From: Escherichia coli
GTDB taxonomy: Bacteria > Pseudomonadota > Gammaproteobacteria > Enterobacterales > Enterobacteriaceae
Strand: one strand, 5' to 3'
NCBI RefSeq assembly: GCF_024223415.1
Contig: NZ_CP100500.1
Length of the DNA stretch: 64,000 nucleotides
Below are positions 1,698 to 40,048 of the stretch, piece by piece (position 1 is the stretch's first letter; each line of letters begins with the position of its first letter). Under the pieces are notes generated by a model. That model saw only the letters and a list, made by a program, of their open reading frames with translations, was not told where the DNA came from and ran no database searches. Made by a program: the position numbers and the translations under genes.

Positions 1698-1743
1698 AAG
1701 ACTGCTAAAATGGCTTTTTGCCTCATCAACACCTGAAGGCCTC

Positions 1744-2255: not shown

Positions 2256-2715
2256 ATTTCACTTCTTTAAAACCAGCGGCTTTCATCACCAGTTCCATTT
2301 GCGCCATAGTGATACCTTTTTTGGCATCTTCAGCAGAAACGTTGATTCCTGAAATACCCTGCAGGGCTTTAAAATCCACTTTTTCCATATCGATAGTCAC
2401 GTTTTCCTGCGCGTAGGTATCGGTATAGGTTAATTTTTCTTCAACACCCGCGATGTTTTTGTATTTGGCGCTTAACGGCTCAAGTGTCTTGGCAGCATCT
2501 TCTTTGGTGGTTGCACCAATGGAGGCAAATTGAATTTTGGTTTCAGAAGATTGCTTAAGCACCTTGTCACCTTTGTAGACATAGGTAATGGCAATTTCAG
2601 TGCCGTTCAGATTGGCGCTGAATTTCTTCGATTCTTCTTTGTCACCGCAGCCAGCAAGAGAGAAAACCAGAACAGATGCAACAACGAGGGAAAACAGCTT
2701 ATTGAAAGCCTTCAT
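2254..2715 (-). CDS. yehR: Lipoprotein YehR
   Basis: Signal peptide with lipobox (LAGC) at N-terminus, MKAFNKLFSLVVASVLVFSLAGC. Confidence 0.8.
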   Translation of the reverse strand: MKAFNKLFSLVVASVLVFSLAGCGDKEESKKFSANLNGTEIAITYVYKGDKVLKQSSETKIQFASIGATTKEDAAKTLEPLSAKYKNIAGVEEKLTYTDTYAQENVTIDMEKVDFKALQGISGINVSAEDAKKGITMAQMELVMKAAGFKEVK

Positions 2716-2839
2716 GTAAAACTCCATTTTATTTAATCAAGGAACTGGTGACTCTCACCAGGGGCTATATAGGATATGCCTAATACCGTGGCGTGAGCAG
2801 TCCGGAACTGGAGTAGAACTCTTAGTAAAAAGCACTATT

Positions 2840-8245: not shown

Positions 8246-8255
8246 GCATCTTTCC

Positions 8256-9344
8256 TCACGGCAGGCGGTGGCGGGCTTGATAATAAGCCTGCCAGTGAGC
8301 TTCTTTATGTGTGGCGACACGCTGTTCGAAGTAACGGCGCAGACGCGCGCGATCTTCTTCGTTATCTTTGACGATGGTTCCGGCAATACATTCCACCAGG
8401 TCGGCAGGCTCCCCCGCGCGATTCGCTAAAAACCAGGCGCGGACGCCCACAGCATGGGCCACGTTCACGGCTTCAGCGGTGGACATAATCGCTGTCAGTG
8501 TATCCATTGACGTTTTCTTTTCGCCGTTGGCACGCAGATCGCGGAAGGTGCGGACCAGTAATTCCAGTACCGCGTCAGGCACTTTATGCGGAATACCGCT
8601 ATGGGCCAGCAAACGCGCCGAAGCACTGGCGACCAGTTCCAACTCCTGGGCGAAATCCATAATCGGAAAAACCGTTTCAAAATCGAAGCGACGCTTTAGC
8701 GCAGCACTCATTTCATTGACGCCGCGATCGCGGGTATTGGCAGTGGCAATAATATTAAAGCCTTCTCGCGCATAGAGCTGACTGGCTTCACCAGTGAGTT
8801 CCGGCACCGTCATCACCCTGTCAGAAAGCATACCTAACAGACAGTCCTGCACTTCCAGCGGTGTACGCGTTATCTCTTCGAAACGGACGATTTTGCCGTC
8901 GCGCATTCCCTGATAAAGCGGGGCAGGGACCAGCGCTTCCGTTGACGGACCATGATTGATAAGCAAGGCGTAGTTCCAGCCATACTTGATTTGATCTTCG
9001 GTGGTAGATGCCCCGCCCTGGATGGTTAACCCGGCATCGCCGCTAATAGCGGTTGCCAGTAATTCAGAAAGAAGAGATTTTGCGGTACCCGGTTCCCCCA
9101 CCAACATCAAACCGCGGCCGGTAGCAAGAGTGACTAACATACGTTCGACAGCGGAGGGGCTAATCACCACTTTACGGCTGATATTTTGCGCTTCGTCGCC
9201 AAGGATAAAAGCACGGGCCGCAGGCAAACTTAACTGCCAACCGGGCGGGCAAGGTGCGTTATCATTTTGTTTTAATTTTGCCAGTTCATCGGCGTATAAC
9301 ACAGCAGCAGGCGGACGCTGCAGATGATTATTCTGCGGTGACAT
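8256..9344 (-). CDS. yehL: MoxR-family AAA+ ATPase YehL
   Basis: Walker A GEPGTAKS and AAA+ core seen in translation; start MSPQNNHLQRPP. Confidence 0.85.
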   Translation of the reverse strand: MSPQNNHLQRPPAAVLYADELAKLKQNDNAPCPPGWQLSLPAARAFILGDEAQNISRKVVISPSAVERMLVTLATGRGLMLVGEPGTAKSLLSELLATAISGDAGLTIQGGASTTEDQIKYGWNYALLINHGPSTEALVPAPLYQGMRDGKIVRFEEITRTPLEVQDCLLGMLSDRVMTVPELTGEASQLYAREGFNIIATANTRDRGVNEMSAALKRRFDFETVFPIMDFAQELELVASASARLLAHSGIPHKVPDAVLELLVRTFRDLRANGEKKTSMDTLTAIMSTAEAVNVAHAVGVRAWFLANRAGEPADLVECIAGTIVKDNEEDRARLRRYFEQRVATHKEAHWQAYYQARHRLP

Positions 9345-9454
9345 ATATTCATCCCTGAAATGTATTAATGAAATAAACGATATTTTACGCGCAATAAATG
9401 TTTGGCGCATTAGTTGTTTGAGCGAAAAATATCTGGAAAGCAGATCACAGTAAA

Positions 9455-9490
9455 TAAAAAAACCTGCTGGTGAGGCAGGTTCTTTTATTT
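9455..9490 (-). terminator. Intrinsic terminator downstream of yehK (minus strand)
   Basis: Hairpin aacctgctgg/ccagcaggtt with flanking A/T runs. Confidence 0.5.
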
Positions 9491-9650
9491 ACTATTTTCA
9501 GGCCTAACACCACAGCCTGTGCAACATCGTGTTCCAACGAACGAATTATAACCACGGCTGGACCCCGTTGCAATTAAGATAATGAGATTTATAATCCAGG
9601 CCATTGGGACGTTGCGCCGGATCGGACCAATTTGAATTATTTAGAGTATA

Positions 9651-9968
9651 TTATTCTATTTCTTGGTTGAATATATTCTGTAGTTCACGATTAAAAATTG
9701 CTATTACAGTTTCAGGTGATTCACCTCGTAATTTCCGCTCATCAATACACTCATCTCTTATATAAATCAACGCATCATTTATTAGCGGGTCAGCATCTTC
9801 TCGATCACGTTGATGAAATGTTGGACGTAGCCGGAATCGCTCCAGTCGATAGACGGAACCTGTAAATAATTCAGAGCATTTATGGATCTCAAGTCTGAAG
9901 GAAAACGGATCTTCAGGTACAGGGACCTCATAATCGTAAATAGCAACCAGCTCTTTTTGCACGATCAT
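9651..9968 (-). CDS. yehK: Small uncharacterised protein YehK
   Basis: 105-aa ORF in conserved position between yehL and yehI. Confidence 0.7.
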   Translation of the reverse strand: MIVQKELVAIYDYEVPVPEDPFSFRLEIHKCSELFTGSVYRLERFRLRPTFHQRDREDADPLINDALIYIRDECIDERKLRGESPETVIAIFNRELQNIFNQEIE

Positions 9969-13670: not shown

Positions 13671-16600
13671 TTATTCAAACAGGGCTTCAATATCGTTAAT
13701 TAGCTCGCTGGCGGTGATGGCATCGATTACGGAGAACTGCGCTTCCTGTGTTGAATTACTCCCCCAGCCATATCTTTCTGCTTTGCCTTCCCATAGCCAC
13801 AGCTTGCTTAAGAGCTGCTCAGCGCTGAGTTCGGCTGGCGACATGCCTACCGCAAAGCCTTCATCGATTTCCATGATTAACGACCAGCGACCCAAAGGTT
13901 TGATCATCCATCCGATCCAGCCTCCATCCTGTGGTTCGCCCTTTATCCAGCCTTTATTCGCCAGCCCCATGACCCGACCACTCGGGCATTTTCTGCCTGC
14001 CCAGCGGGTCAGTTCACTGGCATTGCGCTCGGCTTCTGTCAGGGCGTAGCTGTTACGGTCGATCTGGCGGAACGGTGGTAGCAGTTCGTAGTCGGCAAAA
14101 AGCTGACCAAAGGCGGCAGCATCCGTTGGTGATATTTCCAGAACGTGAGGAGTGCCGATAGAGATATCGCCTTCCGGCAGGGTGAAAAGATCATCGTCAG
14201 CGGTGCTGGAGCTGTTATCTTCTGCTACGCGAAAGCAAGCCAGTAGCTGGTTTTCGGCGCTATAAACGCCCCAAATCAGACGGCGGGTTAAGTGACGAAC
14301 CAGCGGATGCTCAACCAGGAAGAGCTGGAAGTTTTCCAGCGACCAGCGGCGGCGCAGGCACATGGCGGATTCCAGCCTTGCTACCTGCTGGGCGGCGATG
14401 GTACGCGCATCTTTTTTCAGCAATTTGTAGCGGTTAACCGCATCGTTCGCCCGCGTTTCATCATCGCTTTTGTTCGGTTTGGGCAGGTCTTTCAGGCGGC
14501 TGCCGGAAACATCACGCACAAACGGTTTTAAGGTTTCATCAAAGCTGACGGTGAACTGCCGTGGGCCAAAATCCAGCAGCAGCGAACCGTTATCATCCAG
14601 ACCGAGATCCGGTGCTAACCGATCTTCAAGCTCCGCCACCGTGAGTTCGCGGCTCTCGGCAATGTCGGCAATTTTTTCTTTTGCCCGCTCCTGTAATGCT
14701 TTGAATTTCAGTTTCTGGGCGATGCCGTTAAGCTGCATAAGGGCGATATCACTACCGATAGCAGCGAGAATATCCAACCCAACGGTGGCGCGTTTATGCT
14801 GGGATTCACCAGGCCAGGCGCGTATTAATGGCGTCAGTTTGCGGGCGGTGTCATCGTTACCGAGAACGCCTAACGCAGTGAACGCCCAACTCTCTTTCGA
14901 CGGCGCGCCAGCGGTCTGCCAGGCGGTAAACAGATCCCAGGCAAATCCCGCCAGTGAGTCGGCGGAACAGACGTCTTTCACCTGCAATAATCCCGGATAC
15001 AGAGCCTCTTCCTGAGGGAAGCGGAGCATTTCACCGAGGTGGAGGAGGGCGCTATCTGGCAGTGATTGGGCATTTGCTTTTAATACCGGGCGCGTCCAGA
15101 GCGATGGCTGATAAAAGGCCGGAAGAGTGGGGATTTTTGTCGGGTGATTATCTAAGGGATCGAGCGCAAGCAGAGCGTTCACCGCATCGGTTACTTCCGG
15201 CTGGTTATAACGTCGGGCGATTTCTTGCAGTAATGGCTGATGACCGTTTTCGGTAAGCATACGCAAGGCAGCGCGGGCGTTATCCTGGGCTTCACCGGCT
15301 TTGCCGAGCGCCGCAGGCAGCAGGCCGGTAAGGGCATGTTCCGGGTATTTCAACAGCCAGCTACGGGCGTTTTCGCGTAGCGTTTTCAGTTTGTTGAAGG
15401 CACGGGCGACGGCAGGAGCCAGCTCACTCGCTGCGAAGTAATTCGTGATGGGCAAGGCTTCTTGTGGATAGCGTGCAAGTGAGTTTACTAACCCAGGTAA
15501 CCCTTTGAGTCCAAAATGTAACATGGAGTATTCGGTATCGGTATGTGGAGATAGGGTAAGGGCATTCCATGCTTTTACTGCTTTCTCCAGCGGCAATGTT
15601 GTCAAAATCCCCAACTGCCAATAATGCCCGGTAGGTGAATGAAACACCTTAAATTCACTTAGTAAGGTTGAATAATCTTCATTTAGCCATGCCTCAACTA
15701 CCGCTTCGGGAGCTTTAATATATGTACCAGCGATCCGTCGTTGAAAACCCATCCTTGCCAACAGGTTGGTAGTACTTTCTTCATGGCTAACCGTGATGTG
15801 TTTTGAATACCAGATATATTTCGCCAAAAGTTGATTACTGATTTCTTCTGTCAGATAACAGATTGGCTCAATGCCTAATGGCGCTAAATCCAGCACCGGA
15901 ATCGGCGATTTTTTCTTTTTCGAAAGCCAGGGAGGGGAGACTACTACGGCTGGCAGTAGATCGGCGCTGGCATGGTTTGAGGGCTGTGTCAGTTGTTGCT
16001 GGCATGATTTCAGTACGGCAACTGCGGGTGTCGAGAGCCAGGGAATGACCTGTTCTGCCAGTGCTGGTTGTGAGATAAGCATTGTCATTAGCATAATGCG
16101 CCAACTGTTCTCTTCTTTTTGCCCAAGAAGTTCCGTCAGTGCCGCCATTGCTGCATGTGGGAACGCAGCAATGGCTTTCGTCATCCGATCGTGACAGCGT
16201 TTAGTTTGCCCGGCTACACGTATAAGCAGTGTCAATGCGAACGGATGATTGATATGACGCAACACATCGGCGCAGTAGTCACTTGCGGCATAGGGAGCAA
16301 ATCGGGGCAGGGCTGCAACACCTTGCTCCTGTAATACGGTGGCTGACCATATCGCACCACAATAGTAATCATCAAAAATGGCATATGGTTCGTGATATTT
16401 TTCTAATGAGGCAAGAATGTGCTCATCAGTCGCCACTATTTTTAACCACTCAAGCGAGGGTAATTTTTTTTGCCCCAGTAGACGCTGGGCAATTTCATGT
16501 GCAATTTCTGGTTTTTCGGGTAATAACAAAGCAATTAATGGTTGCCGCCATTCTGGAATATGTGGAATTGCTGCAATAAGTTTTTGTGCACATTTTTGCC

Positions 16601-28416: not shown

Positions 28417-28504
28417 TTTATTAACGCGATTGTAAAACTGCCGTTTTTCCTCGTTTACAACGCGTGCGCTGGACATTACCATCCTCCTCTGCGATTTATC
28501 ATCG

Positions 28505-28557
28505 CAACCAAACGACTCGGGGTGCCCTTCTGCGTGAAGGCTGAGAAATACCCGTAT
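28505..28557 (+). ncRNA. 5' fragment of thiM TPP riboswitch aptamer, severed from thiMD by the island insertion
   Basis: Sequence aaccaaacgactcggggtgcccttctgcgtgaaggctgagaaatacccgtat matches the 5' half of the thiM thi-box leader, then diverges into island DNA. Confidence 0.75.
28544..28557. repeat. attL core: 14-bp direct repeat AGAAATACCCGTAT
   Basis: Identical 14-mer found again at 39954-39967 at the other island boundary; both lie within riboswitch sequence. Confidence 0.75.
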
Positions 28558-28643
28558 TTTCTCATTTAGTGTTTTTTGTGGTTCGGGGTTGTTCGTGGTT
28601 GTTTGTGTATGTGTTTGATATATATTGAATTATTGTGTTTTCT

Positions 28644-28718
28644 TGTTTGTTGTTGTTCGTCGTTGTTCGTAGAGCTTCAACAAAATGTGTGGTCAGTTGT
28701 GTGGTCAGTTTTTTGAGG
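28644..28718. repeat. Left copy of ~75-bp near-identical direct repeat just inside the island end
   Basis: ttgttcgtcgttgttcgtagagcttcaacaaaatgtgtggtcagttgtgtggtcagtttt shared with 39821-39895; contains internal TTGTTCGT and TGTGGTCAGTT sub-repeats. Confidence 0.85.
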
Positions 28719-28745
28719 CTGGAGGACTGAAAAGAGGATCTGATA

Positions 28746-29969
28746 GTGGGAAAAGCACTAAACAAACTGAGCGATTCGACGTTAAAAAAATTGGCGTCTG
28801 TCCAAGCAGAAAAAGAGCGTTTTTACTCCGACGGGGGCGGGCTGGAGATTAAACACTCAAAGGGCGGCAAATTAACCTGGTATTTCCGGTACCGAACGGG
28901 AGGCCGTGAGGTTGCCGCAGAGCGGTTAAAGCTGGGGGCTTACCCTGAATTGTCGCTGAAAGCTGCAAGGGAAAAACGCGCACAGTGCCGGGCATGGCTG
29001 GCTGAGGGTAAAAACCCCCGTTATGAGTTGTGCGCCACAGTACAGGAAGCGCTAAAACCCGTTACGGTGAAGGAGGCGATTAACTACTGGCTGGATGAAT
29101 ATGCGAAGGATAACCGCAAAGACTACATAAAGCTGGTGCAACGTATGGATAAGCACATCATTTGCCATATAGGGGCAATTCCCCTTGATAAGTGTGATAC
29201 AAGGCAGTGGATCGCATGTTTTGACCGTGTACGAAAAAAAGCACCAGTAGCAGCAGGGCACGTCATGCAAACCTGCAAACAGGCGCTAAAGTTCTGCCGC
29301 AGGAGACGCTACGCGTTCAGTAATGCCCTGGACGATTTGATCGTCAGCGATGTGGGTAAGAGAGCAGAAATTCGCGAGAGGGTGCACAGCAACAGCGAAT
29401 TAAAGGAAATTTTACGCGCTATTGATGGTGATGTGTTCGCGCCTTACTACAGCGCGTTAATGCGCTTGCTGATTGTGTTCGGGTGCAGAACGGCAGAGGT
29501 CAGACTTTCAGAGATCAAAGAATGGGATCTGAAAGAAATGTTGTGGACAGTGCCAAAAGAGCATAGCAAAACGAAGGTAACGATATTCAGGCCAATCCCC
29601 GATGGCATTTTGCCGTTCATTCAGAAGCTGGTGGAGCAGAACCGGCATACAGGGTTATTACTCGGAGAACTGAAAAAAGATACCACGGTAGCGCAATATG
29701 GGCGAAATGCGCATAAGCGGCTTAACCAGGAACACTGGACGCTGCATGACTTTCGCCACACGTTTACAACGATGCTGAACGATTTAGGTGTCGATCCGCA
29801 TATCGTGGAGCACATCACAGCGCATCAGATGCCCGGTCAGCAAAAAACCTATAACCATTCACGCTATTTACAGGCGAAGCGAGACGCTCTGAATCTGTGG
29901 GTTGAGCGCCTCGATGTGCTGGCTGGAAATCATGAAAATATTGTCATATTAAGGGCTGAAAATGAATAA
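28746..29969 (+). CDS. int: Tyrosine recombinase, P4-type integrase
   Basis: N-terminal arm-binding-like segment (SDGGGLEIKHSKGGKLTWYFRYR) and C-terminal catalytic region (HDFRHTFTT...); apparent GTG start. Confidence 0.9.
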   Translation: MGKALNKLSDSTLKKLASVQAEKERFYSDGGGLEIKHSKGGKLTWYFRYRTGGREVAAERLKLGAYPELSLKAAREKRAQCRAWLAEGKNPRYELCATVQEALKPVTVKEAINYWLDEYAKDNRKDYIKLVQRMDKHIICHIGAIPLDKCDTRQWIACFDRVRKKAPVAAGHVMQTCKQALKFCRRRRYAFSNALDDLIVSDVGKRAEIRERVHSNSELKEILRAIDGDVFAPYYSALMRLLIVFGCRTAEVRLSEIKEWDLKEMLWTVPKEHSKTKVTIFRPIPDGILPFIQKLVEQNRHTGLLLGELKKDTTVAQYGRNAHKRLNQEHWTLHDFRHTFTTMLNDLGVDPHIVEHITAHQMPGQQKTYNHSRYLQAKRDALNLWVERLDVLAGNHENIVILRAENE

Positions 29970-30747
29970 TCTGGGCCGTGTATATCATACGCTGCCAATG
30001 GCAGCTAAAAAAATGGGATGTACTGTAGAGGATATTCTACATTTTGGTGCAACTAACCGACTTGAAATATGTGCGTATATTGATGATATTGAACAGAGAA
30101 AAGATTATTGCACTTTTAATGTGTTTTTTGATAATGAAGATAGCGAGAATAGTTTTTCTAAAACTATAAATAAATATAATTCCATATTTACTGACATGTA
30201 TGAAATATCATTGTTTAATTATAATGATGAGTTTTGTGTTGATGATGAGCGTATGGTTATTGAAGGTTTGTATGCTAATCATATGAAAGGCTTTTTTGCA
30301 ATACCATCTGAATTTCTTGTCGAAGTTGAATTGTCAAGTGCCTGTGAAATCATAAATCTATCGCCTCGTTATTTATATACACCGAAAGGTTATGGTGATT
30401 ATATTCGGTTGGATAGTATAGAAGGTCTTTCTATTCCAGAAAACAGGCTCGTGATATTCGATAGTGAGATATCGGGTTTTAATTATCAAAAGAAACCTAA
30501 ATATGCCGGAGGTGAAAGAGAATCACCTAAAACCAGAGCTAAAAAAGCCGAGATAATACCTGCTCTCATAAAACTGATCCCTGAGATGCAAGATGTGGAT
30601 TTGGAGGATACACCCGTATCCAAAATTGCAGAAATGATAGAGGTTATTGCTGCACAAAGAGGGGTTGAGTTACCTAGCACTCACAGGCAGACATGGCAGA
30701 AATATTTAGGGCGTGATGCTGGTGACGTTCCAAAACGTCAAAAGTGA
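29962..30747 (+). CDS. Hypothetical cargo protein, AT-rich, translationally coupled to int
   Basis: 261-aa ORF overlapping int stop by 8 bp; noticeably lower GC than flanks; no motif recognised. Confidence 0.6.
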   Translation: MNNLGRVYHTLPMAAKKMGCTVEDILHFGATNRLEICAYIDDIEQRKDYCTFNVFFDNEDSENSFSKTINKYNSIFTDMYEISLFNYNDEFCVDDERMVIEGLYANHMKGFFAIPSEFLVEVELSSACEIINLSPRYLYTPKGYGDYIRLDSIEGLSIPENRLVIFDSEISGFNYQKKPKYAGGERESPKTRAKKAEIIPALIKLIPEMQDVDLEDTPVSKIAEMIEVIAAQRGVELPSTHRQTWQKYLGRDAGDVPKRQK

Positions 30748-30803
30748 TATCACGTACAGATAGTGTGATATCACACAAACGGCATTTTACCACCGCCTAG
30801 AAT

Positions 30804-30837
30804 CGTCCTCGTTCGGCAACGTTCGAGGACGTTTTTT
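30804..30837 (+). terminator. Hairpin plus T-run immediately upstream of alpA start
   Basis: cgtcctcg...cgaggacg followed by TTTTTT then ATG; the 3' arm contains the GAGGA Shine-Dalgarno-like sequence. Confidence 0.5.
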
Positions 30838-31062
30838 ATGAATCAAAATACACAATTTCAATCACTATCAGATCGCGTAATCCGTGAGGATGAATGCCGT
30901 AAGTTAACAGGAGTGTGCCGCACTACACGCTACGAACTGGAGAAAAAAGGGAGCTTTCCGTCTCGCCGTAATCTTGGTGGGCGTTCTGTAGGTTGGCTGC
31001 TGTCCGAGGTTATGGAATGGGTTAAAAGCCGGGATCGCATTAATTCAGGCAAGGCAGCGTAA
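30838..31062 (+). CDS. alpA: AlpA-family phage transcriptional regulator
   Basis: 74-aa small HTH protein with typical AlpA-like pattern (SDRVIREDECRKLTGVCRTTRYELEKKGSFP). Confidence 0.8.
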   Translation: MNQNTQFQSLSDRVIREDECRKLTGVCRTTRYELEKKGSFPSRRNLGGRSVGWLLSEVMEWVKSRDRINSGKAA

Positions 31063-31200
31063 AGGGGAGTATATGACACATAAAACAAAGGCGACCGGGG
31101 GCGGTCGCCAATGGGAAAACACTAAACATAAGCCCGGCCATCATAGCGATTTGCTGGCTGGTGGGCAATGTGTCCAGTGTGGTGGCTTGCTGGTGGATTG

Positions 31201-31428
31201 TCAGCCAGGCGGTCGGTTTTTGCCGGATTTAAGCCGCCGTGGGTATTTATCGACAAAATCTTCAAGGGCAAATTTTTCTGGTGGCACTAAGCGCGGCGCT
31301 GGTGGTGGTATTTTTGTTCTGGTTAGTTCTTCCTCAAGTCTGGCGCAGGCTTCTGACTGCCTTTGCCGGATGATTTCATCATCTTGCGTTTGCGTGTCTT
31401 GTATTGGTGATAGTGTGTTGTTGGTCAT
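31201..31428 (-). CDS. Hypothetical protein, second gene of leftward operon
   Basis: 75-aa ORF downstream of the RHH-like gene on the minus strand, followed by a hairpin at 31094-31112. Confidence 0.45.
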   Translation of the reverse strand: MTNNTLSPIQDTQTQDDEIIRQRQSEACARLEEELTRTKIPPPAPRLVPPEKFALEDFVDKYPRRLKSGKNRPPG

Positions 31429-31485
31429 GATACTGCCCTGTAAAGCAATGCGCCGTAGTACCTCACACCACGGCGCTGATAGTGA

Positions 31486-31683
31486 TTATTCTGATTCTTT
31501 GGCCTTGCGGCGCTGTTCATATTTTAATTTGCGTCCACAGGCATCTAAGACCCATGCGGAAAAATTAGCACTAGGATTAGTTAATTTTTCTTGTTCAACG
31601 CTGGCATCAATCCCATCTATAAGCTCATGTGGGAATCGAATATTTTTCTTTGCTGATTTGTTGTTTGTGTTACCACTAGACAT
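31486..31683 (-). CDS. Putative ribbon-helix-helix DNA-binding protein, candidate island repressor
   Basis: 65-aa ORF; N-terminal KKNIRFPHELIDGID resembles the beta-strand/helix of CopG/Arc-type RHH proteins; divergent from rightward operon. Confidence 0.45.
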   Translation of the reverse strand: MSSGNTNNKSAKKNIRFPHELIDGIDASVEQEKLTNPSANFSAWVLDACGRKLKYEQRRKAKESE

Positions 31684-31710
31684 TGATGCACCTCACTTAA
31701 ATGGACTTTA

Positions 31711-31790
31711 TGGGCGCACACAATACAGCAAAAAAAGTGAGAAGTTAAGTATTGACATGTGCGCACACATGATTCTAATCTGTGCGCACA
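31711..31790. promoter_or_regulatory. Divergent promoter/operator region with three copies of palindrome TGTGCGCACA
   Basis: tgggcgcaca (31711-31720), tgtgcgcaca (31758-31767), tgtgcgcaca (31781-31790); TTGACA at 31752-31757 immediately precedes the second site. Confidence 0.55.
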
Positions 31791-31882
31791 GTTTGGGTTG
31801 CATTGCTCAAATTAAGCAACGCCCCGCAGTGCTCGCAACACATGCAGGGCGTCTAACCAAACCGTTAATAGGAGTAACGATT

Positions 31883-32083
31883 ATGGCTGGAACACAGCAT
31901 ACCCCACGCCTTGCGCACACACAAACCGCCTTTGTGTGGCGTTTTCTGGCACTGAGTGCCGGAGAATCTCAAATTATCCACGTAACCGCCTGGACGGAAC
32001 GCGAAGCGCGTAACCGTTGCCCGTCCGGTTGTGTCGCTGTATTCGCCGCCCGTATCCGTCAGGGGGAAACCTATGCACAATAA
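31883..32083 (+). CDS. Small protein, possibly Icd-like (host cell division inhibitor family)
   Basis: 67-aa ORF with good RBS (aggag), first gene of rightward operon; family assignment from memory of similar small P4-like proteins, weak. Confidence 0.4.
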   Translation: MAGTQHTPRLAHTQTAFVWRFLALSAGESQIIHVTAWTEREARNRCPSGCVAVFAARIRQGETYAQ

Positions 32084-32303
32084 AACAACACCGGACGCAG
32101 CAGAAGAAGCAATGCAAATACTGATACGTGCGCTCGTTGATGTTACCCACATGGTGGAGATTATGGAGAGAAAATCACAGTCGGAGCACGACAAAAGAAA
32201 ACTTAAAACAATAAAAATAATTGCCAAAAACTCGCTGATAAAAGTTACAGACATCCTTAATGAGGACATTAAAAGAATCAGGGAGAAAGTGTGTGATGCA
32301 TAA
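32073..32303 (+). CDS. Hypothetical protein
   Basis: 76-aa ORF, start overlaps upstream stop, RBS ggggga. Confidence 0.45.
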   Translation: MHNKTTPDAAEEAMQILIRALVDVTHMVEIMERKSQSEHDKRKLKTIKIIAKNSLIKVTDILNEDIKRIREKVCDA

Positions 32304-32523
32304 AATACCTTTTGATGTTCTTATTCATTCTGAAAACGCATTAATCCGTGCAAAGGAAATGGACGCATTACTACTTAAGTTAATTGATGTGCCGGAAAGT
32401 GGCGATGAATCTGATTCAATAATGTTTTCTGCCGTGCGTACGCTATTAACGCATGTTATTAATGAATTAAATACAGTGATGGCAATTCACGAGAATAATA
32501 AAGCGCAGCACACCGGAGAATAA
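32296..32523 (+). CDS. Hypothetical protein
   Basis: 75-aa ORF, start overlaps upstream stop, RBS gggaga. Confidence 0.45.
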   Translation: MHKIPFDVLIHSENALIRAKEMDALLLKLIDVPESGDESDSIMFSAVRTLLTHVINELNTVMAIHENNKAQHTGE

Positions 32524-32528
32524 AAACC

Positions 32529-32828
32529 ATGAAAAATAAAAATTCTGGCGTTAATGCCAGCGGCCCCGCTCGGCCTGAATTTATGAACGGCGATATTTAC
32601 CGCGACCAGTACGGCGGCACGGTAACGATTAAAGGCGTGGAGGAACGGCGCATCACTTACCGCCGTGAAGGCTACGAATATGATTGCGTGATGCCTGTTT
32701 ATCAGTTCCGGCGTGATTTTTCTCTGGTACAGGCAGCGCCCCGCAGTAAACCAACCAGCAGGGAGAAAGCACGCGCCAATATTCAGGAAATAAAAAAGAT
32801 GCTTAACGTATTCAGGGGTAAAAAATGA
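32529..32828 (+). CDS. Hypothetical protein
   Basis: 99-aa ORF, ATGA-coupled to the primase gene. Confidence 0.45.
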   Translation: MKNKNSGVNASGPARPEFMNGDIYRDQYGGTVTIKGVEERRITYRREGYEYDCVMPVYQFRRDFSLVQAAPRSKPTSREKARANIQEIKKMLNVFRGKK

Positions 32829-34573
32829 AACTGGCACCGAACGTAAAAAAACAGCCGCGTGGAATAAAACACAAAGACACAGAGGTGATTATCTTTGCGG
32901 GTAGTGATGCCTGGGCGCACGCGAAACAGTGGCAGGAACAGGACGGCCCCGCATCCGGCGATGATGTGCCGCCTGTGTGGCTCGGGCCAAATCAGCTTGC
33001 TGAACTGGATGCACTGAAAATTGTACCGGAGGGAAAAAAACGCGTAAGGCTGTACAGGGCCGGAGAACTGGATTTGGTGGAGACCAAAAAGATTGGTCAG
33101 AAGCTGGCGGCGGCAGATATTCAGGATGCGAATTTTTACTCTGAAGGAATGCACGGCCAGAAGGTGCAGAACTGGCGGCGCTATCTGAGTGCTGAGCGTG
33201 AAAATATTGCCGCAGGGCTTACCATGCCGGAACAGAAAAAAGCACAACTTTCACAGATGGCAGACAGTGAACGGGCACAGCTTCTTTCTTCCCGCTTTGA
33301 TGGTGTCTGCGTCCATGCAGAAAGTGAAATCGTTCACGTATGGCGCGGCGGGGTATGGTGTCCGGTCAGCACAATGGAACTTAGCCGCGAAATGGTGGCG
33401 ATCTATTCAGAGCACAGGGCCACTTTCAGCAAGCGCGTAATCAATAACGCCGTGGAAGCGTTAAAAGTTATTGCCGAACCAATGGGCGAGCCGTCCGGCG
33501 ATTTGCTGCCGTTCGCCAATGGTGCGCTTGACCTGAAAACGGGGGAATTTTCCCCGCACACGCCGGAGAACTGGATCACCACGCACAACGGCATTGAGTA
33601 CACGCCACCAGCACCAGGGGAGAATATCTGCGACAACGCGCCAAACTTTCATAAATGGCTTGAGCACGCAGCCGGAAAAGACCCGCGCAAGATGATGCGT
33701 ATATGTGCCGCGCTGTACATGATTATGGCGAACCGGTACGACTGGCAGATGTTTATTGAGGCCACCGGAGACGGCGGGAGCGGCAAAAGTACATTCACAC
33801 ACATAGCCAGCCTTCTGGCAGGGAAACAGAACACGGTAAGCGCTGAGATGACATCGCTTGATGATGCTGGTGGGCGTGCGCAGGTTGTCGGGAGTCGGCT
33901 TATTGTCCTGGCAGACCAGCCGAAATATACAGGCGAAGGAACGGGCATCAAGAAAATCACGGGCGGAGACCCCGTGGAAATAAACCCGAAATATGAGAAG
34001 CGTTTTACGGCGGTAATCAGGGCGGTGGTGCTGGCTACCAACAATAACCCGATGATATTCACCGAACGGGCCGGAGGTGTGTCACGTCGTCGCGTAATTT
34101 TCCGTTTCGACAATATCGTCAGTGAGGCTGAAAAAGACAGGGAGCTACCGGAAAAGATTGCGGCTGAAATCCCTGTCATTATCCGCCGCTTGCTGGCGAA
34201 CTTTGCCGACCCTGAAAAGGCACGGGCTTTACTCATTGAACAGCGAGACGGTGATGAAGCTCTGGCAATAAAGCAACAGACGGATCCGGTTATTGAGTTT
34301 TGCCAGTTTCTGAATTTTCTGGAGGAAGCGCGCGGCCTGATGATGGGCGGCGGCGGTGACTCTTCCAGGTACACGACCAGAAACAGCCTTTACCGCGTCT
34401 ATCTGGCGTTTATGGCGTATGCAGGCAGGAGCAAACCGCTAAACGTAAATGACTTTGGCAAGGCTATGAAGCCAGCGGCGAAAGTTTACGGACATGAATA
34501 TATAACGCGCAGGATTAAAGGGTTTACGCAAACCAACGTGACAACAACAGACGACTGCGACGCGTTTTTATAA
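32825..34573 (+). CDS. Phage/plasmid primase, P4 family (NTPase/helicase domain)
   Basis: 582-aa ORF with Walker A GDGGSGKST and D5/P4-alpha-like C-terminal NTPase architecture. Confidence 0.8.
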   Translation: MKLAPNVKKQPRGIKHKDTEVIIFAGSDAWAHAKQWQEQDGPASGDDVPPVWLGPNQLAELDALKIVPEGKKRVRLYRAGELDLVETKKIGQKLAAADIQDANFYSEGMHGQKVQNWRRYLSAERENIAAGLTMPEQKKAQLSQMADSERAQLLSSRFDGVCVHAESEIVHVWRGGVWCPVSTMELSREMVAIYSEHRATFSKRVINNAVEALKVIAEPMGEPSGDLLPFANGALDLKTGEFSPHTPENWITTHNGIEYTPPAPGENICDNAPNFHKWLEHAAGKDPRKMMRICAALYMIMANRYDWQMFIEATGDGGSGKSTFTHIASLLAGKQNTVSAEMTSLDDAGGRAQVVGSRLIVLADQPKYTGEGTGIKKITGGDPVEINPKYEKRFTAVIRAVVLATNNNPMIFTERAGGVSRRRVIFRFDNIVSEAEKDRELPEKIAAEIPVIIRRLLANFADPEKARALLIEQRDGDEALAIKQQTDPVIEFCQFLNFLEEARGLMMGGGGDSSRYTTRNSLYRVYLAFMAYAGRSKPLNVNDFGKAMKPAAKVYGHEYITRRIKGFTQTNVTTTDDCDAFL

Positions 34574-34597
34574 TTTTTTGTAATTGCTGTCTACCCT

Positions 34598-34815
34598 GTC
34601 TACCTGAGTAAAGAAAAATACATTTAATTCAGTGCATTAAGTTAGGTAGATAGCCTTTTTTTACTGTCTACCCACTATCTACCCTCTCTACCTGATTTTA
34701 CCAGAATCAGACAGGGAGGTAGACACGGGGTAGATAGTGGATAAAAGCACTCTACCCCGCTGAAAGCCGCGCCATTACTGGCATGAGGGCCACTAAGGTA
34801 GGTAAGGTAGACAAG
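34598..34815. repeat. Iteron cluster, putative island replication origin
   Basis: Many direct and inverted copies of GTCTACC/TCTACCC/GGTAGA motifs immediately downstream of the primase gene. Confidence 0.6.
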
Positions 34816-34861
34816 GGGAGGCACAACTCAAAACTTTTTAAACGAGGGGGTAAAAATAAAA

Positions 34862-35119
34862 ATGCACACATCAGAAAAATTTAACAATCAGAAGAAATCA
34901 CATAACCGCGCCATTGACCTTACAGAGCACTGGCTGAGGGTGGCGATAAAAATCATCGACCGCAACGCGGGAGAAGGATACGCGAAAGCACATCCCGAAC
35001 TGATAAGCGCATTCATGACCACAGCGGCGGCAAACTTTGCCACGTTGACAGAACGGGAGATTGCCGAAGCGGAACAGGTGACAACCATCAATGTTAAAAC
35101 CGGAGAGCAGACAGCATGA
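34862..35119 (+). CDS. Hypothetical protein
   Basis: 85-aa ORF, ATGA-coupled to ssb. Confidence 0.45.
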   Translation: MHTSEKFNNQKKSHNRAIDLTEHWLRVAIKIIDRNAGEGYAKAHPELISAFMTTAAANFATLTEREIAEAEQVTTINVKTGEQTA

Positions 35120-35526
35120 CAGCACAGATAGCGGCTTACGGGCGGCTGGTGGACGACCCGCAGACAAAACAGACCAGCAAGGGAACACCGATGACGCTGG
35201 CACGTATGGCGGTATCGCTGCCATGCAGCCAGGCACAGGATGGACAGGCGACGTTATGGCTATCGGTCATCGCATTTGGTAAGCAGGCCGACTTCCTGGC
35301 TAAACATCAAAAAGGCGACGTTGCCAGCGTATCCGGCACGATGCAGGTCAGCCAGTGGACCGGACAGAACGGGGAAACGCGGCAGGGTTATCAGGTTATT
35401 GCAGACAGCGTAATCAGTGCCCGTGCGGCACGTCCTGGCGGGAACAGACGCAAAACCACAGGCACACAGGGTAATCAGCCACCAGCGGGAGGCGATGACC
35501 CTTACGGTGATGATATTCCGTTCTGA
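35116..35526 (+). CDS. ssb: Single-stranded DNA-binding protein
   Basis: OB-fold-like N-terminus, Gly/Pro-rich linker and acidic C-terminal tail ending DDIPF. Confidence 0.8.
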   Translation: MTAQIAAYGRLVDDPQTKQTSKGTPMTLARMAVSLPCSQAQDGQATLWLSVIAFGKQADFLAKHQKGDVASVSGTMQVSQWTGQNGETRQGYQVIADSVISARAARPGGNRRKTTGTQGNQPPAGGDDPYGDDIPF

Positions 35527-35536
35527 GGGGGTGACG

Positions 35537-35809
35537 ATGGTACATGACCGGATAGCGGAGGAACTGGAGGCGAAAGGATTTTACCGGAGGGCGGCCGCGC
35601 GATGGGGTGAAGTTATGAGGCTGGTGAGCACTGACAAGGAGCGCGAACAGGTGGCAATGCGACGGCTGGAATGTTCACAGAAGGCACAGAGGCCACCGGA
35701 GCCGCCGGATGATTTAGGCGCTCTGAAAAGGTCAGTTAATCGCACTGAAAAACAAATGGGGATAGCTGGTATTGGCAAAGCAATATGGCGCAACTACCCG
35801 CAGAAGTGA
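35537..35809 (+). CDS. Small putative transcriptional regulator, PerC-like
   Basis: 90-aa ORF; resemblance to PerC-family prophage regulators is from memory and weak. Confidence 0.4.
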   Translation: MVHDRIAEELEAKGFYRRAAARWGEVMRLVSTDKEREQVAMRRLECSQKAQRPPEPPDDLGALKRSVNRTEKQMGIAGIGKAIWRNYPQK

Positions 35810-35815
35810 GCACAC

Positions 35816-35839
35816 AGCCGGAGCAATCCGGCTTTTTTG
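35816..35839 (+). terminator. Intrinsic terminator
   Basis: agccggagcaatccggc followed by TTTTTT. Confidence 0.6.
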
Positions 35840-35843
35840 CACC

Positions 35844-35887
35844 CAAAAAAAGCCCGATAAGTACAGGAGGCATCTTATCGGGCTTTT
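35844..35887. terminator. Second hairpin, bidirectional-looking
   Basis: A-run, stem gcccgataag...cttatcgggc, T-run. Confidence 0.55.
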
Positions 35888-35966
35888 GCATATGAGGTTT
35901 TTTTTGGTGCACTGACACACATGATCGGGATAATCATTTCATAATTTGCAACGTAACTCAATATTG

Positions 35967-36015
35967 TTGCGCAAAATGCAATCATGATTATAATCAGGAC
36001 TGGATGAACATCCAG
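35967..36015 (+). promoter_or_regulatory. Sigma70-like promoter with downstream dyad operator ahead of the capsid operon
   Basis: TTGCGC (35967-35972), 16-bp spacer, TATAAT (35989-35994), then perfect dyad ctggatgaacatccag (36000-36015). Confidence 0.5.
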
Positions 36016-36050
36016 TTATGATTTTTTAAGTCAAAGAGGAATTTCTGACT

Positions 36051-36257
36051 ATGGCAGAAGAGAAAAAAGGCGGGGTGACGGTCTACATAAGCCCCGACAT
36101 CGTGGAGGCGCTCAAGGAACGCCACCAGCAGAATGTAAAAGCAGGCATTGCGGCAGGACTTGATCCGCTGGCGATGGTTGAGCCGTCAACAGGCTGGCAG
36201 GTGCGTACCTATTTACGTGCGGCGCTGGGTATCAATCAGGTTCACGGAGGTGAATAA
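36051..36257 (+). CDS. Hypothetical small protein, first gene of capsid operon
   Basis: 68-aa ORF with RBS, stop overlaps capsid gene start. Confidence 0.45.
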   Translation: MAEEKKGGVTVYISPDIVEALKERHQQNVKAGIAAGLDPLAMVEPSTGWQVRTYLRAALGINQVHGGE

Positions 36258-37312
36258 TGACAGGCAAAGCAACGGCACTTACAACTAACCAGCTTTTCGC
36301 GTACCTGAATCGCGGGGATATTTCGGAATTAAAATTCAGTCCGCTGTTTACCACGCTGTTTTTCCCGAACGTGGCGACCTTCAACACCCAAAACATCATG
36401 CTGGACACCCTGGACATTGAAGAGGTTACGATGTCAGCGTTCTGTTCGCCTATGGTGGGTAGTCAGGTCCAGCGCGATAAAGGGTACGAAACCAGCACAA
36501 TCAAACCTGGCTACATGAAGCCAAAGCACGAAATCGATCCAACAAAGACCATCATGCGCATGGCTGGAGAAGATCCGGCACAGCTTAACGACCCAACCTA
36601 TCGCCGTATGCGCCTGATTACTGGCAACATGCGCCGCCAGGTAAACGCCATTAAAGCGCGTGTTGAATGGCTGGCGGTGAATGCGGTAACGACCGGAAAA
36701 AACATCATTGAGGGCGAAGGCATAGAACGCTATGAAATCGACTGGAAAATACCGGAAAACTGCATCATACAGCAGGCCAGTGGTAAAAAATGGTCCCAGC
36801 AGGATAAAGACATGCACGACCCAATCTATGACATCGAGCTTTATGCTGATCAGGCAGGTTGCCCCGCCAACGTCATGATTATGGGCGGTGAGGTATGGCG
36901 CACATTACGCAGCTTTAAAAAATTCCGTGAACTGTACGATCTTTCCCGTGGATCAGAATCCGCCGCCGAGCTGGCCTGTAAAAACCTGGGCGAAGTGGTG
37001 AGCTTTAAAGGCTATCTTGGTGATCTGGCCCTTATCGTCTATTCCGGCAAATACACTGACAGCGACGGCACCGAAAAATATTTCCTTGAGCCTGATTTGC
37101 TGGTCCTGGGTAACACCAATAATAAAGGGCTGGTGGCATATGGTGCGATTATGGATCAGGAAGCGGTAAGAACGGGCGCAACGCAAAACATGTACTACCC
37201 GAAAAACTGGATTGAGGACGGCGATCCGGCGATTGAGTACGTGCAGACGCACAGCGCACCGCAGCCGGTACCGGCAGATATTCGCAAATTTGTTACCGTC
37301 AAAATTGCTTAA
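36257..37312 (+). CDS. Major capsid protein, lambda gpE-like
   Basis: Clear blocks of similarity to lambda gpE from memory: KFSPLFTTLFF, KPGYMKPKHEIDP, EDPAQLNDPTYRRMR, YSGKY, YPKNWIEDGDPA. Confidence 0.85.
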   Translation: MTGKATALTTNQLFAYLNRGDISELKFSPLFTTLFFPNVATFNTQNIMLDTLDIEEVTMSAFCSPMVGSQVQRDKGYETSTIKPGYMKPKHEIDPTKTIMRMAGEDPAQLNDPTYRRMRLITGNMRRQVNAIKARVEWLAVNAVTTGKNIIEGEGIERYEIDWKIPENCIIQQASGKKWSQQDKDMHDPIYDIELYADQAGCPANVMIMGGEVWRTLRSFKKFRELYDLSRGSESAAELACKNLGEVVSFKGYLGDLALIVYSGKYTDSDGTEKYFLEPDLLVLGNTNNKGLVAYGAIMDQEAVRTGATQNMYYPKNWIEDGDPAIEYVQTHSAPQPVPADIRKFVTVKIA

Positions 37313-37323
37313 CGGGGGATTCT

Positions 37324-37659
37324 ATGGACGCTCCATATATTGAGTTATTTGCAGGCAGCCAGCAGGTATCCACGACGCTGGTACATTTTGCCGCTGATGC
37401 TGGCGTTATTCAGGAATTTACCCCGCTGATGCTGGCAGACAATGGCGAGTTTAAGGCGTGGGATGGTCAGGAATCTGGCAAAGCTGTTTATCTGACTTCG
37501 CACCCCGTGGACACGTCAAAGCAGAAATCAGCACAGTGTTACAAAACGGGGATATTCAATATTGCCGCCGTTAACTGGCCTGACAGCGTCGACACCGATG
37601 CGAAAAAATGCGCCGCCTTTGCGGGTTCCGGCGTATCCGTTCAGCCGCTGGCCCGATAA
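37324..37659 (+). CDS. Head decoration protein, lambda gpD-like
   Basis: Similarity to lambda gpD blocks: TPLMLADNGEFKAWDG and YKTG.F....WPDSVDTDAKKCAAFAGSGVSV. Confidence 0.75.
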   Translation: MDAPYIELFAGSQQVSTTLVHFAADAGVIQEFTPLMLADNGEFKAWDGQESGKAVYLTSHPVDTSKQKSAQCYKTGIFNIAAVNWPDSVDTDAKKCAAFAGSGVSVQPLAR

Positions 37660-37671
37660 GCAGGGGGAACG

Positions 37672-38085
37672 ATGGCAACGAATGAAAGTATCATGACGCT
37701 ACCGCTGGCGAGTAAATTTAAAGCCGAAGCGCGGGCAATGGCTGACAGAGGTTTATCAACCTACGAGGCCATACACCGACTAAACAAACTGGAAGAACAG
37801 GACAAGCCGCGCGCTGATGCGATTATGGCGCTTCATGAATCTGACGACTACCAGCCGCTGTTACGTGCAATGGCTAACGTGCCTTGTATCGATGTTGGTA
37901 CGGCTAAAAGCATCCTTAGCATGACCATAGAGCAGGAACGCCCGAAGGTTGCACCAGAGCTTACTTCAGCCTTTGAAAACTTTATGGACATGCACAGCCC
38001 GAAAGCCGTATCAGCTGGCATGGCATACGATGGCAGAACCCCGTGCGATGACGGCGACATCGACCGCATACTGAAAACCATCTGA
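37672..38085 (+). CDS. Hypothetical head-module protein
   Basis: 137-aa ORF directly after the decoration gene; no motif recognised. Confidence 0.45.
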   Translation: MATNESIMTLPLASKFKAEARAMADRGLSTYEAIHRLNKLEEQDKPRADAIMALHESDDYQPLLRAMANVPCIDVGTAKSILSMTIEQERPKVAPELTSAFENFMDMHSPKAVSAGMAYDGRTPCDDGDIDRILKTI

Positions 38086-38090
38086 GACAA

Positions 38091-38116
38091 GGCCGGAGAA
38101 ATCCGGCTTTTTTTGC
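38091..38116 (+). terminator. Intrinsic terminator after capsid operon
   Basis: aggccggagaaatccggc followed by TTTTTTT; near-duplicate of the hairpin at 35816. Confidence 0.6.
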
Positions 38117-38200
38117 GGGTCCTTTCCGGCATGTGGACCCGTTACGGGGCGTCGACCTCGCACGTTTTCGCTATTTATGACGTTTTTCCGTGAAGGTGAC
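38115..38200 (+). other. Lambda-like cos site (cosQ-cosN-proximal cosB), copy 1, upstream of terS-like gene
   Basis: gggtcctttccgg...gttacg GGGCGTCGACCT cgcacgttttcgctatttatga closely resembles remembered lambda cos (gggtcctttccgg...gttacg GGGCGGCGACCT cgcgggttttcgctatttatgaaaa). Confidence 0.7.
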
Positions 38201-38247
38201 ACCACCACCACTTGATTAATATTTAACCATGTAGTTAAGGTAACATT

Positions 38248-38682
38248 ATGATTGATAAAGCTTGTTTTGTAAGTCAGCAGGAAATAGCTGAACATTTCAA
38301 TGTTAACAGAACCACTATTCGCGCATGGACCAAACAGGGGATGCCGTATCTTAATGCGGATCGCGGAAAGTCTGGCGGTTATCACATCGGGCATACATTG
38401 TTTTGGTATTCAGGTAAAAGCCATCTTCAGACCATCGGATATCACGTAGAAACCAGTGCGCTGGAAAAAATTATGTTTGCCAGGCTGCTTTCATCTGAGC
38501 GTGACGAGTACTCCAGTGAAGAAACAGAACATCGATTTGATGAAGGTTTGCAGATTTACGGCTATTCACCGGAAGATGTGAGCAAGGCACGAAATAAAAT
38601 GGCTGGCTTTCTGGCTGGGTGGCGTCATGCCGTAAGCGTTCGCCGTGCCAGCATGGAGCAATCAGCCGATACAGAACAGTAA
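38248..38682 (+). CDS. Terminase small subunit-like protein (Nu1-like winged-helix N-terminus)
   Basis: N-terminus QQEIAEHFNVNRTTIRAWTKQGMPYL parallels lambda Nu1 KKQLADIFGASIRTIQNWQEQGMPVL; C-terminal part is divergent. Confidence 0.7.
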   Translation: MIDKACFVSQQEIAEHFNVNRTTIRAWTKQGMPYLNADRGKSGGYHIGHTLFWYSGKSHLQTIGYHVETSALEKIMFARLLSSERDEYSSEETEHRFDEGLQIYGYSPEDVSKARNKMAGFLAGWRHAVSVRRASMEQSADTEQ

Positions 38683-38714
38683 AGCCGATAACTTGTTAAT
38701 CACGCGCAGCAATG

Positions 38715-38850
38715 CGTGTGATTTTTGCACACTTCCGGTTAACGGGTACGATGTCCGGTTTGTTTGTACATTTTTTGCACATGTCCGGTTCGCAGAAAGC
38801 ATGTTTTTATATTTTTCAGATAGTTAACTTGCAGAGAAACCGGACATGGA
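38715..38850. repeat. Direct and inverted repeats TTTTTGCACA..TCCGGTT / AACCGGACATGG downstream of terS-like gene
   Basis: tttttgcacacttccggtt (~38722), ttttttgcacatgtccggtt (~38771), aaccggacatgg (38838-38849). Confidence 0.6.
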
Positions 38851-38930
38851 TCCCGAAAAATTTTCATAAATAGTGAAAACGCGCGGGTTCGACGCCCCGT
38901 AACGGGCCATAATTCCAGAAGGACCCGACG
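38845..38930 (-). other. Lambda-like cos sequence, copy 2, inverted relative to copy 1
   Basis: Reverse complement reads cgggtccttctgg...gttacg GGGCGTCGAACC cgcgcgttttcactatttatgaaaatttttcggg; long imperfect inverted repeat of 38115-38200. Confidence 0.65.
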
Positions 38931-38960
38931 ACACCAGACTATCAGAGCGATGGGGGCACA

Positions 38961-39242
38961 ATGACAGAAGCCGAACTACTGGGATTAATCCGCCGCGTTA
39001 CCGGAATCAGCCAGCAGCATGACGAACAGGCCACGCAGCCGGACAGCGTGACCGCCGAAAATTATGTGCGTGTTGTTGCGGAGGTGATGCGCCGTGACGG
39101 TATTGAGCTTAACGGCGTGGATATGCGCGACATACGGATCCGCGTTCTGGAAATGCTGGCATACCGTCGCCGCGTGCAGACGTACAGGGAAAAAGCAAAA
39201 ATAACGTACCACTGGAAGAAGCCGGAACGACTGCGTACGTAA
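38961..39242 (+). CDS. Hypothetical protein
   Basis: 93-aa ORF downstream of cos copy 2. Confidence 0.4.
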   Translation: MTEAELLGLIRRVTGISQQHDEQATQPDSVTAENYVRVVAEVMRRDGIELNGVDMRDIRIRVLEMLAYRRRVQTYREKAKITYHWKKPERLRT

Positions 39243-39374
39243 TACGTACGGACATCGAGATAACGCAAAATTGCGCTGGCTACATCCCTCACATCTGAGG
39301 ACTGATAACAAGCTGCCTGAAAGACAGTCACAAACTACGAAATTTTCGCAGTTTAATTAATGGTCAGCTTAATC

Positions 39375-39665
39375 GCTAACCCGCTGATATTTTCGGAAAC
39401 ATCAATTTGAGGAAGTCGGCGCGGTAACTCGCTGAACTTAAAGCAAAGCGCAAAATTGCGCTGATTACTGGTTGGAATTGTTCCAGAGTGCAAATTTGCA
39501 CTCTGGCCTAACCCGTTGATTATTTCGAAAACCTGCAATGCAGGAAATCGGGGAAGTAAGCCTAAGCTATTGATTGTTTCGAAAACCACCATTGGGGGAT
39601 GTCGGGAAAGTAAGACTAACCCATTGATTCTTCCACAATCCTCAATGTGAGGAGGCCGGACATCG
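39375..39665. repeat. Four ~54-bp imperfect repeats (three in tandem), each with a variable central CAAT-containing near-palindrome
   Basis: Units at ~39375, 39506, 39560, 39614 share CTAACCC.TTGATT.TTTCGAAAAC and TCGGG.AAGTAAG flanks around a variable centre (e.g. cctgcaatgcagg, cctcaatgtgagg). Confidence 0.7.
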
Positions 39666-39820
39666 TGACAGAGCGTGACAACCAGGTAACTAATCTCGCT
39701 GGTGGGCGTGATGTCGATATGGTGATCCCCATAACGGGTTATCCGTGATCATCCACCAGCTTCATGGCAGATAGCCGGAAAATGATAACGGTTAAGCAAA
39801 ACTGCCAGCAAATTTCCCTT

Positions 39821-39895
39821 TTGTTTGTTATTGTTCGTCGTTGTTCGTAGAGCTTCAACAAAATGTGTGGTCAGTTGTGTGGTCAGTTTTGAGGT
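39821..39895. repeat. Right copy of ~75-bp near-identical direct repeat just inside the island end
   Basis: Same ~60-bp core as 28644-28718. Confidence 0.85.
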
Positions 39896-39953: not shown

Positions 39954-39967
39954 AGAAATACCCGTAT
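39954..39967. repeat. attR core: 14-bp direct repeat AGAAATACCCGTAT
   Basis: Identical to 28544-28557; continues directly into riboswitch 3' sequence. Confidence 0.75.
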
Positions 39968-40048
39968 CACCTGATCTGGATAATGCCAGCGTAGGGAAGT
40001 CACGGACCACCAGGTCATTGCTTCTTCACGTTATGGCAGGAGCAAACT
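39954..40048 (+). ncRNA. 3' part of thiM TPP riboswitch (P4/P5 plus expression platform) retained upstream of thiM
   Basis: gaaatacccgtatcacctgatctggataatgccagcgtagggaagtcacggaccaccaggtcattgcttcttcacgttatggcaggagcaaact ATG matches the thiM leader 3' half. Confidence 0.75.

Follow-up and report, generated by a model that had tools for sequence, protein, structure and literature searches.

The closest described counterparts of the recombination site considered here belong to the helper-embedded phage-inducible chromosomal islands (HE-PICIs). [quoted passage not shown] The same account states that the doubled motif is not found in PICIs at fis. A similar arrangement occurs in the stretch of Escherichia coli DNA described here (contig NZ_CP100500.1; the whole stretch of 64 kb is hereafter the window), where a PICI-type phage satellite is inserted in the thiamine pyrophosphate (TPP) riboswitch of thiM and carries a 70-nt direct repeat just inside each end. 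Judged from sequence, the two copies are quite probably the arm modules of the satellite's attP, in which one motif, B, would serve the arm domain of the integrase and a second, A, most probably AlpA.

Lambda-type attP sites offer a second point of reference. As in those, the N terminus of the integrase is an arm-binding domain, each side of the core has short motifs of another sequence within ~150 bp, and an accessory phased direct-repeat array is available for a small winged-helix/helix-turn-helix excision factor, which is putative here. The thiM satellite differs in that its four arm sites form two identical doublets, whereas lambda has five dispersed sites, and in that its arms are almost identical over 70 nt and lack a clear site for integration host factor (IHF). 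At attL of KplE1, arm sites and int promoter overlap, and KplE1 and P4 provide the precedent for sites of arm type or for the recombination directionality factor (RDF) that overlap the region upstream of int and autoregulate it (Panis et al., 2010, PMC2951348). As in KplE1, HK620, Sf6 and P4, int of the thiM satellite reads away from attL, and the stretch from the core to the int start contains putative arm-type and RDF sites; the arrangement therefore predicts negative autoregulation by Int and RDF. In contrast to those elements, no promoter was identified in the arm, and attB is a riboswitch and not a tRNA gene.

The features on which the comparison depends are the following.
28544-28557, plus strand: attL core AGAAATACCCGTAT, the 14-bp crossover region in the thiM TPP riboswitch aptamer and the longest identity common to both junctions.
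28579-28606, plus strand: A' array of three 10-bp-phased GTTCG/TTGTTYGT units, found close to the core and confined to the left (int-side) arm.
28643-28712, plus strand: left 70-nt repeat copy, formed by the A array, then the B doublet, then a T-run.
28643, 28653, 28663 and a degenerate unit at 28673, plus strand: left A units at exact 10-bp spacing.
28687-28709 (28687-28697 and 28699-28709), plus strand: B doublet of the left arm, GTGTGGTCAGT T GTGTGGTCAGT, putative arm-type sites for a pair of integrase N-terminal domains.
28746-29969, plus strand: tyrosine integrase (Pfam Arm-DNA-bind_3 at residues 8-94, E 6e-18; Phage_integrase at 216-374, E 2e-16; PHROG integrase).
30804-30837, plus strand: hairpin and T-run directly upstream of alpA, bearing a GTTCG-N5-GTTCG pair (A-type units).
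30838-31062, plus strand: AlpA-family protein (Pfam Phage_AlpA, E 6e-16; PHROG 'excisionase and transcriptional regulator'), a putative RDF.
39821-39890, plus strand: right 70-nt repeat copy, formed by the A array and then the B doublet (39865-39875 and 39877-39887).
39821, 39831, 39841 and a degenerate unit at 39851, plus strand: right A units at exact 10-bp spacing.
39954-39967, plus strand: attR core AGAAATACCCGTAT, beyond which lies the 3' half of the thiM riboswitch.

Repeat finding returned one two-copy direct repeat family, 70 nt long and identical at 69 of 70 positions (99%), the sole mismatch being G/A at 28652/39830. A preliminary description of this DNA had reported near-identical repeats inside both island ends with an identical core of ~60 bp, and such a core is exact at 28653-28712 and 39831-39890. 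The overall repeat length of ~75 bp given there is reached only by admitting a 2-nt indel past the TTTT run. The copies sit 85 nt (left) and 63 nt (right) inboard of the att cores, close to the 58-86 bp given earlier. Allowing up to three mismatches, the 60-nt core has no further match within the window, and none was obtained in 100 shuffles.

The short internal direct repeats noticed previously correspond to TTGTTYGT and GTGTGGTCAGT units, located in both copies. A comprises three to four ~8-nt TTGTTYGT units in the order TTGTTTGT, TTGTTCGT, TTGTTCGT, degenerate unit, while B is the 11-nt unit GTGTGGTCAGT doubled at a 12-bp period. Exact copies of this unit number four in the window, at 28687/28699 and 39865/39877. 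B is thus repeated, differs from the core sequence and flanks the core on both sides, at 129 nt (left) and 66 nt (right). The left arm additionally holds an AT-rich spacer and the A' array, made up of GTTCG-N5-GTTCG at 28581, TTGTTCGT at 28589 and TTGTTTGT at 28599. GTTCG-N5-GTTCG occurs only four times in the window, three times in the arms and once 13-27 nt upstream of the alpA start codon.

The 70-mer is present in 75 of 5426 complete E. coli genomes, on the chromosome each time and never on a plasmid. A sensitive search placed the repeat at two or more positions in each of the 75, four in some, and found in none of them a solo copy of the kind left as a scar by copy-copy recombination. In both loci opened in detail (L001 and L002, which differ in cargo), the island lies between rcnR and thiM with the repeat on both arms. 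The repeat is island-specific, is always on both arms and is not a scar. The preliminary description had allowed for a common genomic repeat; a generic repeat is ruled out, as this is a single two-place family in the window and is confined to this island across E. coli, in the 75 genomes that carry it.

Relatives were gathered through integrase homologues and protein-cluster look-ups, together with scans of genome and viral collections with the degenerate doublet GTGNRGTYARTKGTGNRGTYART; an integrase peptide scan of genome contigs found no relatives. Related satellites, with integrases 52-76% identical, occupy thiM and a site beside dppA in Salmonella, cspD|clpS in E. coli and, in many Enterobacteriaceae, the fis 3' end. 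In all of them the left arm reads core, A' cluster, AT-rich spacer, A array, B doublet and int, with a B triplet in L012. Wherever right ends are available, the A array is followed by the B doublet in the orientation seen on the left. Motifs, order, orientation and register are therefore kept in the int-side arm of relatives at three other sites, in line with the earlier proposal that the copies are arm-type integrase or excisionase sites flanking the attP core. A comparison with attP arms of related islands had also been suggested there; it yields the same two motif classes, with matching distances in the thiM, cspD|clpS and fis lineages.

These three are the lineages with both arms and the core mapped, and in them the core-B1 distance on the int side is 127-129 nt and the core-B2 distance on the other side 64-71 nt. 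Phasing is equally regular. In 94 unique arms GTTC occurs 146 times upstream of B, 137 of these at exactly 12, 22, 32 or 42 nt before B1, and the A-B spacer measures either 6 or 16 nt, a difference of one helical turn. Fixed geometry and phasing are the signature of a nucleoprotein assembly and not of drifting duplicated DNA.

The two motif classes are not conserved to the same extent between arms. B is identical at 20-23 of 23 positions between the two arms of each island, and the 46-nt A part agrees at 76-96% in the thiM lineage, 57-63% in cspD|clpS and L070, and 30-39% in fis. Since the fis-lineage arms have only short motifs in common, it is the short motifs that selection keeps. By these comparisons the 70-nt near-identity is a peculiarity of the thiM lineage. 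The remark made at the outset, that the repeat length is unusual, is borne out in part: near-identity across all 70 nt is a trait specific to this lineage.

A non-functional footprint, left by recent duplication, by gene conversion or as a remnant of a tandem or earlier element, would account for a 99% copy identity that extends to the inter-motif bases. Moreover, the left arm of L111 has an allele that is common on right arms, a hint of occasional arm-to-arm exchange, and tandem satellites are known (L010; PMC10111431). However, lineages with otherwise unrelated arm sequences repeat the layout, its orientation and phasing, and the distances to the core, and both copies are retained in all 75 E. 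coli islands. Relative to the window's left copy, those of L002 and L117 have drifted at several positions, all in A or the spacer and none in B. A footprint is thus very unlikely, and the earlier suggestion of a preceding tandem or neighbouring element finds no support: arms of the fis lineage have just short motifs in common, and none of the 75 E. coli genomes has a solo scar.

The tandem-like case deserves separate mention. On L010, a Logan contig, a second int-AlpA element lies directly upstream of a fis-lineage satellite (358-9717 and 10001 onward), in what looks like a tandem of two elements.

The left module, through its B doublet, ends 36 nt ahead of the int start codon, so proteins bound there would probably regulate int too. 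It could even be that the left copy is mainly an operator or promoter element of int and the right copy incidental, as the KplE1 and P4 integrases are autoregulated through sites overlapping attL (PMC2951348). This is highly improbable given a right copy at a fixed distance from the core in each mapped lineage (thiM, cspD|clpS, fis) and a left arm in which no sigma-70-like promoter is found. An operator role is in any case compatible with attP arms and does not exclude them.

A structured RNA element encoded by the repeat is extremely improbable. The plus-strand 70-mer does fold (z = -3.4) around a TTTGTTG/CAACAAA hairpin, but the hairpin needs the 16-nt spacer, in place of which other lineages have 6 nt, and no Rfam match falls at the repeats. 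What is conserved is direct repeats in DNA register and not pairing; the hairpin was rejected as not conserved across lineages.

Natural swaps between satellites bear on which protein recognizes which motif. The window and L005 (cspD|clpS) have one A motif in common, and their AlpA DNA-binding regions show 100% identity across 63 aa. Their B motifs differ (GTGTAGTTAAT in L005), and their integrases agree at 67% over the whole length and at 51% in the N-domain, where the beta-strand residues are not the same. The reverse holds between L005 and L103/L070, which have one B in common and N-domains that agree at 75-78%, and fully in the beta-strand residues, while AlpA is 59% identical and A differs (TTGTTCCA). 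In these comparisons B appears to track the integrase allele and A the AlpA allele. A host factor acting on the A units is unlikely, as A differs among satellites of the same host species.

The A motif also recurs near alpA. Lineage-matched A-like arrays are found in the int-alpA spacer of L005, L011, L012, L007, L116, L103 and L070, the individual matches being weak. What is enriched is a placement ahead of alpA, seen in 7 of 12 islands, of which several are related. AlpA is needed for int-dependent PICI excision and activates its own promoter (PMC6092414, PMC11773190). From the swaps, the A units adjoining alpA and these roles of AlpA, we infer that B is an arm-type site of the N-terminal DNA-binding domain that the integrase bears besides its catalytic domain (Pfam), and, less firmly, that A is probably a site of AlpA as excision factor. 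This suggests that both proteins bind the repeat, rather than either alone.

The arms might be functional with the proteins assigned differently: B could be bound by AlpA or another island protein, or the integrase could bind both A and B. For the homologous doubled motif, the HE-PICI account does not decide between AlpA and an unknown protein as binder (PMC10111431). B is also common to L007 and L005 despite an N-domain only 51% identical, so that its co-variation with the integrase is imperfect. Sites of lambda Xis, for their part, resemble TGTAGTC. Such assignments remain unlikely, since the AlpA DNA-binding regions of the window and L005 are identical and their B motifs are not, and since L005 and L103 have the same B with AlpA proteins 59% identical. 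Furthermore, B occurs only in the arms, while A-type units recur by alpA, whose promoter AlpA autoregulates (PMC6092414).

Several observations, the L007 case among them, weigh against the pairing of B with integrase and A with AlpA on attP arms. A minus-strand DUF3950/YnfO-like small gene co-varies in the three-way comparison just as AlpA does, and the A-AlpA swap involves few independent lineages. An 18-mer similarity search for arm-like A arrays within islands gave scores not above those of shuffled queries. In EcCICFT073, Pint activity is unchanged by AlpA (PMC6092414). A promoter scan returned no sigma-70-like promoter in the left arm, giving only the host thiM promoter (28454-28482). Putative RDF arrays on both arms depart from the lambda type, and a strict IHF consensus is absent from both arms, with a relaxed match, TATCAACTGATAA, at 39929 only.

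If integrase and AlpA do occupy B and A, respectively, the attP would be assembled as follows. In the circularised element the two modules would be co-oriented, one on each side of the 14-bp core, and the two B doublets would provide four arm sites, one per protomer of an integrase tetramer. The A units, three to four per arm, together with the A' array near the core on the int side, would most probably be occupied by AlpA, which as directionality factor would bend the arms for excision. All such effects on recombination and transcription are ones we infer from the observed anatomy, conservation, geometry, phasing and co-variation.

Set beside the HE-PICI attP, the thiM satellite has much in common with it. 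Both carry a tandemly doubled ~11-nt motif that starts with TGTGT and has a 12-bp period, and their integrases are of related clades. In both, two co-oriented copies are placed asymmetrically about the core, at 81/132 bp there and ~85/137-150 bp here, and the int-side copy is just upstream of int. Indeed, the HE-PICI doublet was recovered directly upstream of int genes in viral contigs, the position of B in the thiM satellite. The copy-to-copy distance is similar, not identical (~232 bp here, ~213 bp in HE-PICIs). The recognition sequence differs within the same architecture, with a motif core of TGTATTGC there and GTGTGGTCAGT here (GTGnRGTYART). Two further differences concern the description itself: fis PICIs do hold an equivalent doublet, of different sequence, and the 10-bp-phased A array and its link to AlpA are not described in the accessible part of that account (PMC10111431).

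This attP arm design is already known, and the thiM satellite is most likely a further case of it, unusually tidy and with another recognition sequence. No new kind of system is revealed. The doubled attP motif of HE-PICIs extends, with its sequence changed, to the PICIs of the thiM, cspD|clpS and fis sites and to those beside dppA. For a satellite family widespread in E. coli and Salmonella, the arms provide a map of recombination sites comprising four putative integrase arm sites and phased putative AlpA sites in fixed geometry. Natural Int/AlpA swaps suggest a route to att sites of altered specificity and offer a way to test AlpA as a direct excision factor.

A wider reading, whose parts we hold jointly and only tentatively, as somewhat short of probable, centres on AlpA. 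AlpA is known to act in Gram-negative PICIs as their helper-induced master activator; here it would in addition be a direct directionality factor, binding 10-bp-phased GTTCR arrays on both att arms and in its own leader hairpin. Sensing of the helper, AlpA expression and excision would then be coupled through a single protein. A and B would form a portable cassette, each half of which satellites could swap independently, and the near-identity of the window's two arms would reflect arm-arm exchange.

The hairpin that precedes the alpA start is terminator-like and is also present in L001 (~16245-16278), L116, L079 and L037. Its 3' stem takes in a Shine-Dalgarno-like GAGGA, and GTTCG..GTTCG forms a 10-bp direct repeat in its loop; fis-lineage satellites retain the stem but have the loop repeat on the opposite strand. 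This hairpin may be a control point of AlpA autoregulation.

The element between the cores measures 11.4 kb, with its called genes on the plus strand, and is a PICI-type phage satellite inserted in the thiM TPP riboswitch. When joined, its flanks are 100% identical to the uninterrupted site, annotated 'riboswitch | thiM', of K-12 and thousands of further genomes; the flanking genes are E. coli rcnR and thiM. In the window the Rfam TPP riboswitch model matches just the 3' half (36 bits against a gathering score of 54), which places the insertion inside the aptamer. Gram-negative PICIs are recognized by int, alpA and a primase/replicase gene read in one direction within ~10-15 kb, at a dedicated attB that prophages do not use, and the 11.4-kb plus-strand island has this gene content and size. 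Besides the integrase and AlpA it encodes a primase, a single-stranded DNA-binding protein, proteins for the major head and for head decoration, and a small-terminase-like protein, which agrees with the Gram-negative PICI layout (PMC6092414). No full-length counterpart of the island is found in the phage collection.

The insertion rearranges the surroundings of the riboswitch. Across 28519-28557 and 39954-40014, int is now what the thiM promoter and the 5' aptamer half face, and thiM retains only the 3' half. Regulation of thiMD is presumably altered by the insertion, and int may receive read-through from the thiM promoter. At the left junctions of the window (28550-28565) and of L009, L020 and L037, CCGTATTTTC is common to the thiM and fis att sites and the adjoining island DNA, even at an integrase identity of only ~57%. 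This suggests a conserved crossover and core half-site in the integrase clade.

Within the island, 31423-31859 is 95% identical to 12151-12587 of L005 although the integrases of the two satellites differ. In L005 this segment is called as small minus-strand genes, one of them DUF3950/YnfO-like, and its counterpart in the window as a 336-aa plus-strand open reading frame (ORF); the gene calls at 31423-31859 are therefore uncertain. Directly downstream of the primase gene, 34587-34743 holds direct and inverted repeats of CTGTCTACCC / GGGTAGATAG that resemble replication-origin iterons, and L005 has an analogous GGTGAACAG array past its primase (15265-15490).

Other repeats lie towards the right end. 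Two alike terminator-like hairpins, GCCGGAG(C/A)AATCCGGCTTTTTT, are found at 35812-35838 and 38087-38113. A 70-nt inverted repeat, 79% complementary (38124-38193 and 38851-38920), brackets the small-terminase-like ORF (38248-38682). Near the island end, 39374-39613 contains three ~54-nt repeats, 70-78% identical and each with a small palindrome, and the 50 nt adjoining them (39611-39660) match roi/antirepressor genes of Stx phages at 90-94%.

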